This document shows, piece by piece, positions 12,082 to 37,048 of a DNA stretch of 64,000 nt. The stretch lies in the IMG/VR virus record IMGVR_UViG_3300022555_000004. The stretch is one strand, 5' to 3'. The translations under genes and the position numbers were made by a program. The notes below the pieces were generated by a model. It saw only the letters and a program-made list of their open reading frames with translations. It was not told the DNA's origin and did not search any database. The stretch is from a virus (Duplodnaviria; Caudoviricetes). Every line of letters begins with the position of its first letter. Position 1 is the stretch's first letter.

Positions 12082-13503
12082 ATGATAACTTTTGACGATT
12101 TTGTAAATGAAGCCATAGATGATGATATTCGTGTTGTTGTTATAACAAGTCGTAAAAAATCTGGCGGATATTTCAAAACTTCTGGTAAAATAAAGAAAAT
12201 ATGTGATGATATGGGCATAAAAAATTATATTGCCTATGCTGAAGAAGTGTTTCTTGATAAAGATGATGAAGGCAAACTTCGATTACATAACACAGATGAT
12301 AAAAAAGGATTTAGAATTAGTAAAAACAATACAGTCGCTATCATAAGAAATAGTGTTACAAAAGGCCAAGCCAGTCTTGATTTTGTATCACAACTGGAAC
12401 GATATGGTATTTTTTGTGTAAATTCACGTCAAAACATAGAAGAATGTTACGATAAGTATCGCACATATTTGAAGATGTCTGACGCTAAAATTTCTACGCC
12501 TAAGACGGCACTTATAACAAGCGAACACGGTATTGAAGCCGGATTCAAAAAAGTTGGCGGAAAATTCCCTTGTATTATCAAAACACTTACAGGTGAACAG
12601 GGGGTTGGTGTATTTCTTGTTGATTCCGTAGAAGGCATGAAATCAACATTACAAACCATTTGGAAGCTAAAAGAAGGAACAGAGGTTATAATTCAAGAAT
12701 TTTTAAAAGCCGAATATGATATGAGAATACATATACTTGGAGGCAAGTATATTGCTGGAATGAAACGATTCAAAATCAAAAAGGATTTTAGGTCTAATTA
12801 TTCATTGGGCGGATCAGTAGGGGAACTAAAGATAACAGAGGATGTAGAAAATTTAGCAATCTTAGCTGCTAAATGTGTTGGTTCTGTATGGGCAGGCGTT
12901 GACATACTCAAAACTAAAGACGGAAAATTATATGTTCTTGAAATCAATGCTTCGCCGGGTACGGATGGCATAGAAAAGGCCAGCGGAATTCCTGTAACAA
13001 AGAAAGTAATAAAATATATAACAGACAGAGAAAACTGGTTTAGAACACCAACCGAATGTGGCTATATTGAAAATATTACAATTGAAGCCATGGGCGACAT
13101 GAAAGCAAAAATGGATACGGGTAATGGATCATATTGTGTTATTCATTCTGATAAATGGGAAATCAAAAAAGATGGATATGTAACATGGACACATTTAGGT
13201 AAAGAATTTGAACATAAGTTAGATGGAATGAAGAATGTTAGAACGATGGGCAAAATGGAAGAACGTCCATCTGTATTATTGAACGTAATCTTCAATGGCG
13301 ATACATATAAAGATGTAAAGTTTACAATTAGTAACAGAGAAAATATGAGCACGCCTATTTTATTGAACAGATCATTTATCAAACAGGCAAATTTAGTAAT
13401 AAATCCGGCTAAACGATATGCTCTTTCGTTGGGTGGGCCAAAAAAAGGCGATAAGAAAGAAGATATAAAAGAAAGCTCTGGAATCAGAGGATGGTTATTA
13501 TAG
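12082..13503 (+). CDS. RimK-like ATP-grasp ligase fused to a RimK-associated (DTG) protease domain
   Basis: PCIIK..TGEQGVGV, IIQEF, RIHILGG, FRSNYSLGG, GVDI, LEINASPG; C-terminal AKMDTGNG...ERP...LLNR. Confidence 0.88.
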   Translation: MITFDDFVNEAIDDDIRVVVITSRKKSGGYFKTSGKIKKICDDMGIKNYIAYAEEVFLDKDDEGKLRLHNTDDKKGFRISKNNTVAIIRNSVTKGQASLDFVSQLERYGIFCVNSRQNIEECYDKYRTYLKMSDAKISTPKTALITSEHGIEAGFKKVGGKFPCIIKTLTGEQGVGVFLVDSVEGMKSTLQTIWKLKEGTEVIIQEFLKAEYDMRIHILGGKYIAGMKRFKIKKDFRSNYSLGGSVGELKITEDVENLAILAAKCVGSVWAGVDILKTKDGKLYVLEINASPGTDGIEKASGIPVTKKVIKYITDRENWFRTPTECGYIENITIEAMGDMKAKMDTGNGSYCVIHSDKWEIKKDGYVTWTHLGKEFEHKLDGMKNVRTMGKMEERPSVLLNVIFNGDTYKDVKFTISNRENMSTPILLNRSFIKQANLVINPAKRYALSLGGPKKGDKKEDIKESSGIRGWLL

Positions 13504-13512
13504 GAGAAAACG

Positions 13513-13695
13513 ATGAATGTTAATGAAAAAATTGATAAATATTTGAAAGAAGAATTGGAAGTTGATGATGATACATATACATTTGATATTGGTGGTTTCG
13601 ATAAAGATGTAACACCGGATGATGAACGAATATTCAAATCTATAAATTATGATACAGGTAATGTTGTGGTACATGTGCATTTATATCAAGGTTGA
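13513..13695 (+). CDS. Small acidic protein with KYLKE motif
   Basis: AGGAG RBS; MNVNEKIDKYLKEE. Confidence 0.6.
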   Translation: MNVNEKIDKYLKEELEVDDDTYTFDIGGFDKDVTPDDERIFKSINYDTGNVVVHVHLYQG

Positions 13696-13868
13696 TGCCA
13701 GATTACGAGGAATTTACTTATTGTAAAAACTCTGCTGTATTAAGTCTTGTTAATAATGTAGGAAAAAACACAAATATGAAACCAATTAAAAAGATAGCAA
13801 CAAAATGTTGGTTTAGTTGTAAAAATTGGAAAGAACATAATGATATGTATAGTCAGGGAGGATAGATA

Positions 13869-14147
13869 ATGAGAACAGAGGAAATAGTTGATAAATATTT
13901 GAAAGAAGATGCTGGTGATCCTGTGTTCTTTGGTTTGAATGAGTTTGATAAAAATCAAGCCAGAAAAGTCAATTATGAAAGCGCGAAGTGTTGTAGTAAT
14001 TGTAAATCTCATTTTGGATCTGCCAGTGGTATTGCATGTAATTCTTTGGCCATGAAAAAATATATAATGTCGTTTCTTGCTGAAGATGTATATGAATCAT
14101 TTGTTACTAAACCAGATATGATTTGTAAATTTCATTCAAATAAATAA
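13869..14147 (+). CDS. Small Cys-rich protein with KYLKE motif
   Basis: GGAG RBS; MRTEEIVDKYLKED; CCSNCKSH...C...ICKFH. Confidence 0.6.
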   Translation: MRTEEIVDKYLKEDAGDPVFFGLNEFDKNQARKVNYESAKCCSNCKSHFGSASGIACNSLAMKKYIMSFLAEDVYESFVTKPDMICKFHSNK

Positions 14148-14176
14148 AAAGTAAAATATTAAGGAAGGTTATTATA

Positions 14177-33843: not shown

Positions 33844-35217
33844 TTATAAAGAATTCAAAAAATTACCAACTTTTAATCCAGTTTTTATATTTTTGAACCC
33901 ATCAGATGTAGGAAACTTATGGTCTGCTGAACATATAATTTCTTTACCACTTTTTGTTTTTATTTTATACATTTTTTTAATTTTTTTATTGAAAACTCTG
34001 TTTACAGATACATTGCCATCGCTGCCTTTGATAATATCACCTTTTTTGAGATTACATATCTTTTCATTTTTATATGTTTTTCCATCCCACATCAACACAT
34101 CGGTATCTAATGACAAACATTCTGAAATGAACGTGAAATCAACTTCATCAAATGTAATGTTCATTCCTTCTCTGTTCAACTGGCTTACTGATACAACCGG
34201 CATCAAAAACTCAAACGATAATGCTCGTAGTTCTTCGGCTATAGATTTTACATCAGAATACATTTCACCTTTTGTTCTATATGCCGGTTTCATAAGATTC
34301 AAATAATCACATATGAAAATATCTGGTTTGATGCCACGAATCAACAATTCTCTAATATATTTTCGATAATCATCAACTGTGGCCTTGCCGGTAGGATATT
34401 GTTTGATATATAAATTTCCGCGTGTTGTTGATGCCTTCAAAACATCCAATGAACGAACCAATTTAGATTGTAATGGACGTTCTCTATACATTTTATTGAT
34501 ATCAAGTAACGATAGAATTGAGTCAAATCTTTGTGCAAAGGCTTCTTCTGACATTTCAAGTGAGGCTAATATGACATTTTTTCCGGCCATAACCTCTCTA
34601 GCCGCCATGTTAGCTAAGAATGTTGATTTGAACCCATGAATACGTGCCACCATTACAGACAATGTATATGGGGGAAATCCGCCTGATATATATTCGTCTA
34701 ATACAGGGAATCCTGATGGTATACGTATTTCACTTCTTGTGAAAATCTTTGTAAGTCGTTCATCAAGTGTGCCAAAATAATCAAGACCTAAATCAATTTT
34801 TAGGTCTTTACTTATGGCATCTTCTACCAATCGCCGTATCATTCCAATATCTTCTTTCTTATTGATAACATCGACTGATGATAATATTGCTTTTTTGACA
34901 GCTTTTTCTTTCAAATATTCGTTAGTGCTGGTGAATAAGAAATCATAATTATTGATGTAGTCAAAATCCGTTGCATCAATTTCACGAAAAAAATCTGCAA
35001 CATCAGTTGATCCTTCTTTATCAAATTCACTGATGATTGCTACTCTAGGTGGGATATTCTTATATTCTTGAAAATGTTTGATACTGTAATCATATATTTT
35101 TGACGCTGTTTGATTATCAAAATACTCTTTGTCGAATACAGACGATAGTGTTGCTATGTATTGTGGGTCTACCATACACCCTTTGATGATAAGATGTTCT
35201 AATAAAACAGATTCCAT
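33844..35217 (-). CDS. gp41: gp41 DnaB-like replicative helicase N-terminal part plus split-intein N fragment (Int-N, 91 aa, 33844..34119)
   Basis: ARIHGFKS (Walker A), SLEMSE, ICDYLNLM, VSVSQLNR; then FISE|CLSLDT...CSADHKFPT...GLKVG stop. Confidence 0.92.
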   Translation of the reverse strand: MESVLLEHLIIKGCMVDPQYIATLSSVFDKEYFDNQTASKIYDYSIKHFQEYKNIPPRVAIISEFDKEGSTDVADFFREIDATDFDYINNYDFLFTSTNEYLKEKAVKKAILSSVDVINKKEDIGMIRRLVEDAISKDLKIDLGLDYFGTLDERLTKIFTRSEIRIPSGFPVLDEYISGGFPPYTLSVMVARIHGFKSTFLANMAAREVMAGKNVILASLEMSEEAFAQRFDSILSLLDINKMYRERPLQSKLVRSLDVLKASTTRGNLYIKQYPTGKATVDDYRKYIRELLIRGIKPDIFICDYLNLMKPAYRTKGEMYSDVKSIAEELRALSFEFLMPVVSVSQLNREGMNITFDEVDFTFISECLSLDTDVLMWDGKTYKNEKICNLKKGDIIKGSDGNVSVNRVFNKKIKKMYKIKTKSGKEIICSADHKFPTSDGFKNIKTGLKVGNFLNSL

Positions 35218-35797: not shown

Positions 35798-36235
35798 TTA
35801 TGCCTTCCCATTACATGACATAATAAAAGCGTATGATGATTGTTTACAATTCTTTTTACATTTTATACAAATTTCATTGAGTTTGGCCCAAAACTGTTTG
35901 GCTGTTGGATGTGTATCTGTTCCATTTTCTGTCTTTTCAAATACAATAGGAACATCTTTGATATATAAACTTTGTATCTTGAATTTGGTAAGAAATTCCT
36001 CTGCTTCACCTTTTGTCTTGGTTTTTTTCATCCATTGTTTTAGTGTAAGATATTCCTGTGTTTCAGTAACATCAGATAGCTTGTTTATTTGTTTGGTTTT
36101 TCGTAATTTATCTTCTTTGATAGTGCCCGTAAACCATTTATTCGATTTTTTATATACGATTTTTGCGTTCATATTACCCTCACTTTCAAAAATATTATAC
36201 CATAATTGAATCAAAATGTCAATAAATGGTGCCAT
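35798..36235 (-). CDS. Hypothetical protein (true start probably MNAKIVY)
   Basis: GAGG RBS before MNAK; promoter TTGACA-17-TATAAT at 36194-36222. Confidence 0.55.
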   Translation of the reverse strand: MAPFIDILIQLWYNIFESEGNMNAKIVYKKSNKWFTGTIKEDKLRKTKQINKLSDVTETQEYLTLKQWMKKTKTKGEAEEFLTKFKIQSLYIKDVPIVFEKTENGTDTHPTAKQFWAKLNEICIKCKKNCKQSSYAFIMSCNGKA

Positions 36236-36302
36236 AGGTGGGAATAGAACCCACGTTGACGGCGTTTTAGAGGCGCCCGCTTAACCACTCAGCTACTACG
36301 GC
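36227..36302 (-). tRNA. tRNA with CUA anticodon (amber suppressor type)
   Basis: 76 nt. Acceptor GCCGUAG/CUAUGGC plus ACCA; D-arm GCU-GAGUGGUUA-AGC; anticodon arm GGCGC-CUCUAAA-ACGCC (C31.A39 mismatch); T-arm GUGGG-UUCUAUU-CCCAC; anticodon at 36268-36270. Confidence 0.88.
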
Positions 36303-36311
36303 ACATTATTT

Positions 36312-36650
36312 TTAGGTCAACATTTCTAAATCACTTAGAAATCCAGCATCTTCTTCATCAATCAATCCACAAATTCCTGTCAAAAGATCATCCCCAAATG
36401 GATAATTATCTGGCTCATGGAACATATATATGTCAATGTCTCTTCTTTCAAAGGAAAACATTACACCATATAATTGATCAGTATCAGGCACTTCCAGATA
36501 TATCAAATATTGATTATCCCATAACTTAGCATCAGGACTGTTCAAACAAAACTCAGCAACTATATGCCCTGCTTGAACTGCTGGTGATGAACACAATAAA
36601 TTTTTACGCACAATTACATATAGTCTGTTGTTTTTCATATTTTTCAACAA
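36312..36650 (-). CDS. Pth2-like peptidyl-tRNA hydrolase (start probably 36638)
   Basis: RLYVIVRK.L....AVQAGH.VAEF...YL.V...F.EPD...LT.I. Confidence 0.75.
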   Translation of the reverse strand: MLKNMKNNRLYVIVRKNLLCSSPAVQAGHIVAEFCLNSPDAKLWDNQYLIYLEVPDTDQLYGVMFSFERRDIDIYMFHEPDNYPFGDDLLTGICGLIDEEDAGFLSDLEMLT

Positions 36651-36906
36651 TCTCCTTCTTTATTTTATCAATGTATGTTTGGTTTGCTAGGTTGTTCTTT
36701 GCAGGAATCTCAATTTGATCTCTTGTTCTTCCCCTCAACTCACAATAAGCTATGTGGTGGTGCCGGAATTTATACTTTTTTTGAAAGATGGCATAATCAT
36801 CTTGGCTTAAATCATGCCCTTGTCTATTTGATAATGGTCTATAACTTTTCAATTCTTTAATTTCTTTAGCTAACAGTTTTAAATATTCTTTGGTTTCTTT
36901 TAACAT
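36604..36906 (-). CDS. Basic 100-aa protein upstream of the Pth2-like gene
   Basis: LKLLAKEIKELK...FRHHHIAYCELRGRTRDQIE; AGGAG RBS 8 nt upstream. Confidence 0.7.
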   Translation of the reverse strand: MLKETKEYLKLLAKEIKELKSYRPLSNRQGHDLSQDDYAIFQKKYKFRHHHIAYCELRGRTRDQIEIPAKNNLANQTYIDKIKKEIVEKYEKQQTICNCA

Positions 36907-36916
36907 GGCTTGTTCT

Positions 36917-36996
36917 CCTATAATATTGGTTTCAGGTTCTTTGTTCTGAAATATTATAGGCGGCCCTCTAAGTAATTGGATCTACTTCATTTTCAT
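36917..36996 (-). promoter_or_regulatory. Leader micro-ORF (M-K-UAG-IQLLRGPP) plus SD-sequestering hairpin
   Basis: GGAGG RBS, ATG 36990, AAG, TAG 36984-36982, then open in frame to ATG 36906. CCUAUAAUAUU (36960-36950) pairs perfectly with AAUAUUAUAGG (36927-36917), which contains the AGG of the SD. Confidence 0.75.
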
Positions 36997-37019
36997 TTCC
37001 TCCCTCATGTTGATGTAAC

Positions 37020-37048
37020 AATATAACACAAATATAATCGGTTGTCAA
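37020..37048 (-). promoter_or_regulatory. Sigma70-type promoter of the leader-Pth2-tRNA operon
   Basis: TTGACA-17-TATATT with TG extension. Confidence 0.75.

Follow-up and report, generated by a model that had tools for sequence, protein, structure and literature searches.

What does a suppressor tRNA act on when the phage DNA that encodes it appears to follow the standard genetic code? Phage suppressor tRNAs are usually seen as tools for recoded late genes, and many of them occur in genomes without recoded genes. The 64,000-nucleotide (nt) stretch of Caudoviricetes DNA analyzed here (IMG/VR record IMGVR_UViG_3300022555_000004, hereafter the window) encodes a tRNA with the anticodon CUA at the end of a small operon on its minus strand. 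Two overlapping genes, A and B, lie upstream of this tRNA, and they are preceded by a short leader whose third codon is UAG. We propose that the leader is a translational switch and that its input is stop-codon readthrough by the operon's own suppressor tRNA, a reading to which we give a probability of roughly 70%. Such a module would give phage suppressor tRNAs something conserved to act on in cis and would place them in a plausible control circuit. The parts of the operon are as follows.

37020-37048, minus strand: sigma-70-type promoter with 11/12 matches (-35 TTGACA at 37048-37043, -10 TATATT at 37025-37020)
36999-37006, minus strand: Shine-Dalgarno (SD) sequence of the leader, GAGGGAGG (GGAGG at 37003-36999, 8 nt ahead of the ATG at 36990)
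36990-36982, minus strand: leader start and gate, ATG AAG TAG (Met-Lys-UAG)
36958-36981, minus strand: part of the leader reached only by readthrough, I-Q-L-L-R-G-P-P (RGPP at 36969-36958)
36917-36960, minus strand: predicted hairpin of 11+4 base pairs (bp) that would sequester the ribosome binding site (RBS) of gene A (5' arm 36960-36946, loop 36945-36936)
36915-36919, minus strand: SD of gene A, AGGAG, with its first three bases (A-G-G) inside the 3' arm of the hairpin
36604-36906, minus strand: gene A, an open reading frame (ORF) of 100 amino acids (aa)
36312-36638, minus strand: gene B, 108 aa, predicted Pth2 fold, overlapping gene A by 35 nt
36227-36302, minus strand: suppressor tRNA with anticodon CUA (ARAGORN; Rfam RF00005, 52.1 bits)

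The promoter has a 17-nt spacer with a TGn (extended -10) element and ranks second among the promoter-like sites found in a scan of 3 kb. Comparable TTGACA-type promoters precede the leaders of two relatives (L003 and L015). The tRNA begins 9 nt past the gene B stop; no promoter-like site was scored between them, and no terminator-like site was found within the 3 kb scanned around the operon. A perfect 12/12 sigma-70 promoter (TTGACA, 17 nt, TATAAT, TGn) is present at 36194-36222 on the minus strand, 5 nt past the 3' end of the tRNA, and drives the next gene (36172-35798).

A second in-frame ATG in the leader (ATG AAA, 36996-36991) is spaced just 2 nt from the SD. Past the TAG, the leader frame reads I-Q-L-L-R-G-P-P-I-I-F and meets no stop before the gene A ATG at 36906. 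The 5' arm of the hairpin begins at the second and last Pro codon of RGPP. In the outer stem, CCUAUAAUAUU (36960-36950) is perfectly complementary over 11 bp to AAUAUUAUAGG (36927-36917), and an inner UCAG/CUGA stem (CUGA at 36935-36932) adds 4 bp. For the 66-nt segment the predicted folding energy is -15.6 kcal/mol (z = -3.96), a stability equalled by only 1/200 dinucleotide shuffles. The GGAGGA of the leader SD and the AUAGGAG around the gene A SD are both invariant when the window is aligned with its three closest diverged relatives. A short ORF with a TAG and then a Pro motif occurs a single time in the six frames of the 64 kb. The first-pass annotation had described the order promoter, SD, ATG-AAG-TAG, IQLL-RGPP, hairpin, genes and tRNA, and every coordinate holds base for base. 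It had also claimed that the two stems bury the AGG of the SD and that 9 nt separate the last stop from the CUA tRNA; folding confirms the former, and ARAGORN and Rfam the latter.

In the proposed mechanism, transcription from this promoter would yield an mRNA that extends from the leader through genes A and B to the tRNA. A ribosome starting at the leader SD would make Met-Lys and then meet the UAG. If a release factor wins, the ribosome would exit 24 nt before the hairpin. With the UAG in its A site its footprint would end near 36972, leaving 12 nt between it and the arm, so that the hairpin would remain closed and the gene A SD hidden. If tRNA(CUA) decodes the UAG, the ribosome would translate IQLL-RGPP and could stall with its P site on CCG (36963-36961) and its A site on CCU (36960-36958), a placement that uses the stall geometry published for RxPP peptides (PMC10951233). 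The stalled ribosome would cover about 15 nt past the P-site codon, to about 36948, and thus the entire 11-nt 5' arm. AGGAG would then be freed, and gene A and the translationally coupled, overlapping gene B could be made. Because readthrough would gate the hairpin, the circuit would report the ratio of active suppressor tRNA to release factor. We infer the stall at RGPP from the RxPP literature, and both the sign (ON) and the size of the regulation from the geometry of the leader; co-transcription of the tRNA with the operon is likewise an inference.

The comparison with relatives used DNA around B homologues taken from metagenome contigs, IMG/VR, representative genomes and GenBank. A first set comprised 45 non-redundant loci encoding a B homologue, and 40 of these have a gated leader upstream of A; the leader counts below refer to these 40. 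Each is a short ORF with one to three in-frame stops, in which 2-8 codons precede the gate stop and an RxPP, xRPP, KPP, RGSP or RGP-D motif follows 5-13 codons later. A strict pattern (TAG, then PP or R[AGSD]P within 20 codons, with no intervening stop) is present in 34/45 leader regions and in 14/255 control regions of the same loci (Fisher p = 3e-24), and it is found in 3/45 cases on the antisense strand. When TGA or TAA replaces TAG in this pattern, its frequency is at background. ATG-NNN-TAG, the form seen in the window, begins at least 14/40 leaders. The motif is R-x-P-P in 15/40 (RGPP, the commonest, in 8; RAPP in 4; RSPP in 2; RDPP in 1), and most leaders without it have xRPP, RGSP or RGP-D.

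The closest diverged relative, whose B protein is 73% identical, has the leader MT-UAG-VRRL-RAPP-stop, and its different stem sequence pairs with AUAGGAGG. Leaders of other relatives include MK-UAG-IIRF-RAPP-stop, ML-UAG-ISNF-RAPP..., MK-UAG-INNYLNQQF-RGPP..., MT-UAG-VNQQ-RPP-stop and the doubly gated MKRNSFW-UAG-VSDQFW-UAG-LKQI-RGPD.... In 18/40 the leader stops right after the motif (Pro-Pro-stop), on the hairpin arm. The A homologue overlaps or abuts B in nearly every locus, and 65/74 non-redundant loci have a same-strand suppressor tRNA downstream of B. In several loci it lies 300-700 nt or more past B with other genes intervening. Among representative prokaryote genomes there are five matches, all on contigs of metagenome-assembled genomes and all with gated leaders. 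Rfam has no family for the leader, and a blastn search of the locus against GenBank phages returned a match to the tRNA only. One variant leader, MKKVFL-UAG-IFN-UGA-GSP (L047:~2075-2120), has a TGA in place of the Arg codon of RGSP and is either a decayed leader or a double gate.

The codons of these leaders suggest what is being conserved. The Arg of the motif is written with five different codons (AGA, AGG, CGA, CGT and CGC), which indicates selection at the level of the peptide, and in sister leaders a Ser codon alternates between AGT and TCT. Directly after the gate stop, Val or Ile is encoded in 30/40 leaders, and the base that follows the stop is a purine in 38/40. In classical context studies a purine after the stop codon favors suppression over release. 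The varied Arg and Ser codons, together with the Val or Ile and the purine after the gate, point to selection on decoding and on the peptide that goes beyond base pairing alone. The Pro codons also often pair with GGAGG, or with AUGG at the start of A in phages that lack an SD.

The hairpin is conserved in its architecture. In minimum free energy (MFE) folds, the RBS zone of gene A from SD to AUG is paired with an upstream arm in 39/39 loci. Measured from the motif end, the first base of this arm has a median position of -1 nt and lies within +13 nt in 38/39, so that a ribosome stalled on the motif would have the arm in its footprint. The gate stop precedes the arm by a median of 22 nt, and by at least 16 nt in 36/39, a distance that a terminating ribosome would not bridge. 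Pairing between the RBS and this arm has a probability of 0.73, against 0.19 in shuffled sequences, and the mean MFE z score is -3.4. The arrangement of erm/cat-type attenuators, in which a short leader has its own SD and its coding sequence supplies the 5' arm that sequesters a downstream RBS, is found in the window and in all 39 loci. RNAalifold called no pairs on a MAFFT alignment of 15 hairpin regions, in which loop lengths differ and the arms were misaligned. Since this null result arose because the arms were not aligned, we replaced it by folding each sequence separately and by an alignment-free covariation test that pairs every arm with every RBS of the 39 loci. Cognate duplexes average -13.3 kcal/mol and non-cognate duplexes -6.2 kcal/mol, and 0/10,000 permutations reach the observed mean. 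The cognate RBS is the best partner of the 39 in 21 cases.

The identity of the gate codon follows the anticodon of the associated tRNA. All 54 non-redundant loci that have a CUA tRNA and match the strict pattern have a TAG gate, and none has a TGA gate. In three loci of one small clade (L050, L083 and L084) the gate is TGA, and a tRNA with anticodon UCA follows B (Rfam 61-70 bits). Their leaders read MKRI-UGA-TRN-RGPD... and two KGPD variants; the L050 positions of the module are 2154-2204 and 2841-2914. ARAGORN labels this tRNA as selenocysteine (SeC), yet it is an ordinary 73-nt tRNA. In the megaphages Lak-A2 and Lak-B5 the gate is TAA and the tRNA has the anticodon UUA, the order being tRNA, leader, A, B. 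Between the tRNA and the TAA-gated RG(S)P leader downstream of it lie 30-140 nt; this leader reads MKLQHW-UAA-VTLS-RGSP-L... in Lak-A2 (L150:740-1030, MK250019) and MELQHW-UAA-VTCD-RGP-UAA in Lak-B5 (L152:841-1000, MK250024). The Lak-A2 leader is recognizably the same peptide as TAG-gated leaders elsewhere (...UAG-V.S..RGSP-F/L...). No mismatched case was found among the loci examined, and a perfect match between gate and anticodon would arise by random assignment with a chance of 2e-8, a figure to be read with the small number of independent evolutionary events in mind. Only TAG is reported to be recoded in Lak phages (PMC8346664). A TAA-suppressor tRNA has been published as universal among them (all 51 genomes), with no recoded TAA and as an unexplained feature. 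The TAA-gated leader is a candidate explanation, and it links this puzzle to a specific neighboring element.

Leader conservation, arm/RBS covariation and gate/anticodon matching each support, at the level of sequence, the core claim of the first-pass annotation that termination at the UAG would leave the hairpin closed and that readthrough would free the SD. The two comparative features by which it proposed to judge this claim, a stop with an RGPP-type motif and an SD hairpin in homologous leaders and stems that covary with their own RBS, are both present. Several observations weigh on the other side. The large ORFs of the 64 kb are intact under code 11, TAG ends 12/104 predicted genes, and no gene in the 64 kb convincingly needs suppression. 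The nascent chain at the presumed stall would be only about 10 residues long. RxPP arrest is context-dependent in published work (PMC10951233), and a chain so short may drop off rather than stall. About one-third of the relatives have no clean RxPP (KPP, APP, WPP, RGSP or RGP-D instead). Because the Pro codons pair with GGAGG or AUGG, they may be conserved in part for the RNA pairing itself. The leader is in frame with gene A in only 2/40 cases, the window included, and here any ribosome that escapes the stall would produce an A protein with an N-terminal extension. One clade each accounts for the UCA and the UUA cases, so that independent switches are few, and tRNA(UCA) has a backbone different from those of the CUA tRNAs and is not a point mutant of them. 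A search for expression data found the sequence in lake-water DNA runs only and in no RNA run.

The hairpin could also be opened without a true arrest, if a ribosome in transit over the 5' arm transiently opens it as in ordinary translational coupling. The Pro codons would then be kept mainly since CCN-CCN, with a UAA or UGA stop, complements GGAGG or AUGG. Pro-Pro codons do pair directly with the SD (for example in L016 and L018), and in the SD-less phages L022, L057 and L065 CCACCAUAA pairs with UUAUGG, including the AUG. About one-third of the leaders lack an Arg at -3, and the 18/40 that end directly past the motif do so on the arm. However, the Arg or Lys two to three residues before the last Pro is kept by way of five Arg codons and lies outside the pairing, and the RGP-D and RGSP variants keep the peptide motif even though the arm begins downstream of it. 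A Pro-Pro C terminus by itself slows both elongation and termination, according to references given in PMC6412442. We therefore consider a gate without arrest unlikely. A different question is what the gate senses. If the suppressor tRNA is a constant competitor, the sensed variable could be the activity of host release factors, or tRNA charging or integrity. Gate readthrough would then rise when release factor 1 (RF1, at TAG), RF2 (at TGA) or both (at TAA) fail, and A and B would be a back-up that deals with ribosomes or peptidyl-tRNAs trapped at stop codons. This possibility deserves to be kept in view, if not as a probable one. Its logic resembles that of RF2, which regulates itself at an in-frame UGA, and that of ArfA under the control of transfer-messenger RNA. 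B has a predicted peptidyl-tRNA hydrolase fold, and the self-contained module is shared by TAG-recoding and non-recoding phages. Lak phages use TAA with tRNA(UUA) though only TAG is reported as recoded (PMC8346664). Against this, A has no recognizable fold relative, ribosome binding by A or B is putative, and the sequence features fit a simple sensing of tRNA abundance equally well.

The main output could instead be transcriptional or lie in RNA stability, if ribosomes translating A and B shield the transcript against Rho-dependent polarity or decay and so raise the yield of the tRNA at its 3' end, which would be the positive feedback suggested in the first-pass annotation. The 9-nt gap between B and the tRNA, with no promoter-like site in it and no terminator in the 3 kb scanned, would suit such an arrangement, and an engineered UAG-gated tna/trp leader acts through Rho in just this way (PMC6412442, section 6). 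The tRNA of Lak lies upstream of the leader, however, and in several loci genes intervene over the 300-700 nt or more between B and the tRNA, so feedback on tRNA yield is not the conserved function. The conserved hairpin also targets an RBS and not a terminator, and we regard this alternative as quite improbable. Hardly credible is the view that the TAG is a mere sense codon of an alternatively coded phage and the leader simply the N terminus of gene A. The leader frame of the window does enter gene A without a stop, and some relatives clearly recode TAG, with in-frame TAGs inside B. Only 2/40 leaders are in frame with A, though, and the others end in TAA or TGA 32-104 nt before its start. Gene A has its own SD and a conserved N terminus that begins M-L/K-K-E-T-K, and the large ORFs of the 64 kb are intact under the standard code. 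On these comparative data, both a chance origin of the leader and its being an N-terminal extension of A were rejected. A switch that responds to readthrough by the suppressor tRNA is the reading that we retain.

The genes under this switch would be a protein pair with a possible link to tRNA. Gene A has 36 homologues that share the motif RHxHIAYCELRGR and are always positioned directly upstream of B. Its AlphaFold model is all-helical, with a predicted local distance difference test (pLDDT) score of 93.7, and searches of Pfam, PHROGs, the Protein Data Bank (PDB; Foldseek), 48,000 chains (VIA-align) and AlphaFold DB clusters gave generic helical matches only. Gene B of the window has no Pfam match and falls below the curated threshold of PF01981, but 52/77 sampled members of its family match PF01981 (PTH2) at E <= 0.01, and the family profile finds solved archaeal Pth2 proteins (PDB 2zv3 at E 7e-6). 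The AlphaFold model of B (pLDDT 92.8) is matched by Foldseek to archaeal Pth2 and human Pth2 (Bit1) structures, with E values of 3e-6 to 3e-4 and template modeling (TM) scores of 0.66-0.80 (3erj, 2zv3, 1xty and 1q7s). The label "Pth2-like" given to gene B from its sequence was thus right by predicted fold, despite the lack of a Pfam match. The invariant residues Q22, H25, E75/D77 and T87 fall, in the alignment, on the AQ..HA and D..T positions conserved in MJ0051, and the Lys of the Pth2 GKGK loop is not evidently retained. We regard gene B as a divergent subfamily of the predicted Pth2 fold and as a putative peptidyl- or aminoacyl-tRNA ester hydrolase. A prediction of the A-B complex scored 0.00, which is evidence neither way.

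Our leading guess is that A and B may handle peptidyl-tRNA or stalled ribosomes that arise from stop-codon readthrough; they might alternatively serve as a back-up when release fails. A profile search places 2,350 cluster representatives in the B family at E <= 1e-3 and 612 at <= 1e-10, and this large, unstudied Pth2-like family and its constant partner A are candidates for new functions in translation quality control. The tRNA(CUA) of the window has a canonical cloverleaf with A73 and an encoded CCA, and its Rfam score stands against a threshold of 29 bits. Its short variable loop assigns it to class I, and it is therefore not of the bacterial Leu, Ser or Tyr type. Two cultured jumbo phages, Stenotrophomonas phages RAS14 and CM1, have a distant B-like match. 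This was rejected as a member of the module, as it is a fusion of an HD domain and a Pth2-like part without leader or tRNA (RAS14 inspected). In RAS14 (L151, OP752703: 88311-89096), the B-like part lies behind the HD-type domain in a 261-aa protein that adjoins a valyl-tRNA synthetase.

The suppressor tRNA could also serve recoded genes, and relatives differ in this respect. The gene for B itself contains in-frame TAGs in some loci (L020, L031, L033, L044, L045, L048, L052-L056 and L059-L063); these phages are genuinely TAG-recoded, and their B is doubly dependent on suppression. The signature of code 15, in-frame TAGs in conserved genes with coding density restored, was not found in the 64 kb. 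The module therefore occurs in TAG-recoded phages, in non-recoding phage DNA and, in Lak, with a stop other than the recoded one. From this distribution the module would seem to be a self-contained gauge of suppressor tRNA relative to release factor, which would express the Pth2-like protein and its partner only while readthrough of stop codons is under way. Three TAG-terminated ORFs of the window have coding-like extensions past the TAG. As evidence for recoding these were rejected: the ATP-grasp protein has 473 aa and all of its homologues are close to this length, at about 470 aa, and in a relative the ATP-grasp gene ends in TAA and abuts the next gene. The extensions are better read as separate small ORFs in an insertion of about 670 nt. 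This stretch (13504-14176, plus strand) lies between the RimK-like ATP-grasp gene (12082-13503, TAG end) and a gene of 978 aa, and it is absent in a relative (L142). Its small TAG-separated ORFs have coding-like codon usage and are possible readthrough targets or just small genes.

Two other regions of the window were noted. At 1-2794, long ORFs run on both strands (928 aa on the minus strand and 845 aa on the plus strand), with dozens of evenly spaced TAGs in other frames; this is a highly repetitive coding region that possibly encodes a collagen-like fiber. At 33844-35217 on the minus strand is a DnaB-type helicase with a C-terminal Hint/intein-like segment, and a weak PF14890 match is recorded for an identical protein. 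Public contigs as long as 229 kb encode a protein identical to B, and a jumbo phage is the probable source of the window.

We also consider a broader and more tentative proposal, which we hold to be possible though on balance doubtful. The leader, A, B and the tRNA would form a mobile, self-contained sensor of termination versus readthrough that comes in TAG/CUA, TGA/UCA and TAA/UUA versions, with A and B as a new pair of factors that release or recycle peptidyl-tRNA or ribosomes where normal termination at a stop codon fails. If true, this would explain orphan suppressor tRNAs in non-recoding phages, the TAA suppressor of Lak included. Full-text literature searches for a stop-gated arrest leader, or for a Pth2-like gene linked to phage suppressor tRNAs, found neither. 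The proposed switch would be the first natural leader peptide to have stop-codon readthrough as its input.

Each step of the mechanism has a counterpart in known systems. Like the RxPP arrest peptides ApdA, ApdP and ApcA and the RAG-P of SecM, the window leader has Arg-x-Pro-Pro at its presumed stall and would hold the ribosome on the 5' arm of an RBS hairpin. Those peptides are long, are secreted or targeted to the membrane, and are encoded upstream of secA, secDF or yidC; pulling force releases their arrest, whereas the window leader has about 10 residues, no targeting signal and a Pth2-like pair downstream, and reaches its motif only by readthrough. It would thus extend the use of RxPP arrest motifs from monitoring secretion to monitoring the genetic code. 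The erm/cat attenuators (ErmCL and ErmBL) share with it a short leader with its own SD on which a held ribosome opens an RBS hairpin. Their inducer is a ribosome-bound antibiotic and a resistance gene lies downstream, while in the window the trigger would be stop decoding by a co-encoded tRNA and no resistance gene follows. In prfB, an early in-frame UGA senses termination versus alternative decoding of the stop. That gene uses a +1 frameshift inside its own coding region and responds to RF2 only, in contrast to suppression by a dedicated tRNA with a read-out through arrest and a hairpin. Pro-stop stalls, as in TnaC and peptides with a C-terminal Pro-Pro, slow release. The 18/40 relatives that end in Pro-Pro-stop share this feature, but the window leader continues past RGPP and an elongation arrest would be expected instead.

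The closest printed counterpart is synthetic. Amber codons engineered into the tna or trp leader (PMC6412442, section 6) follow the same logic and act through Rho-dependent transcription termination, whereas the element described here is natural, widespread in phages and predicted to act on an RBS hairpin. The code-change modules of stop-codon-recoded phages (Borges et al., 10.1101/2021.08.26.457843) likewise place a suppressor tRNA in a small operon of translation genes, together with an aminoacyl-tRNA synthetase as well as a release factor, and that work mentions neither a gated leader nor an arrest motif nor a Pth2-like gene. Unlike those modules, the present one is also found in phage DNA where TAG still serves as a stop codon.

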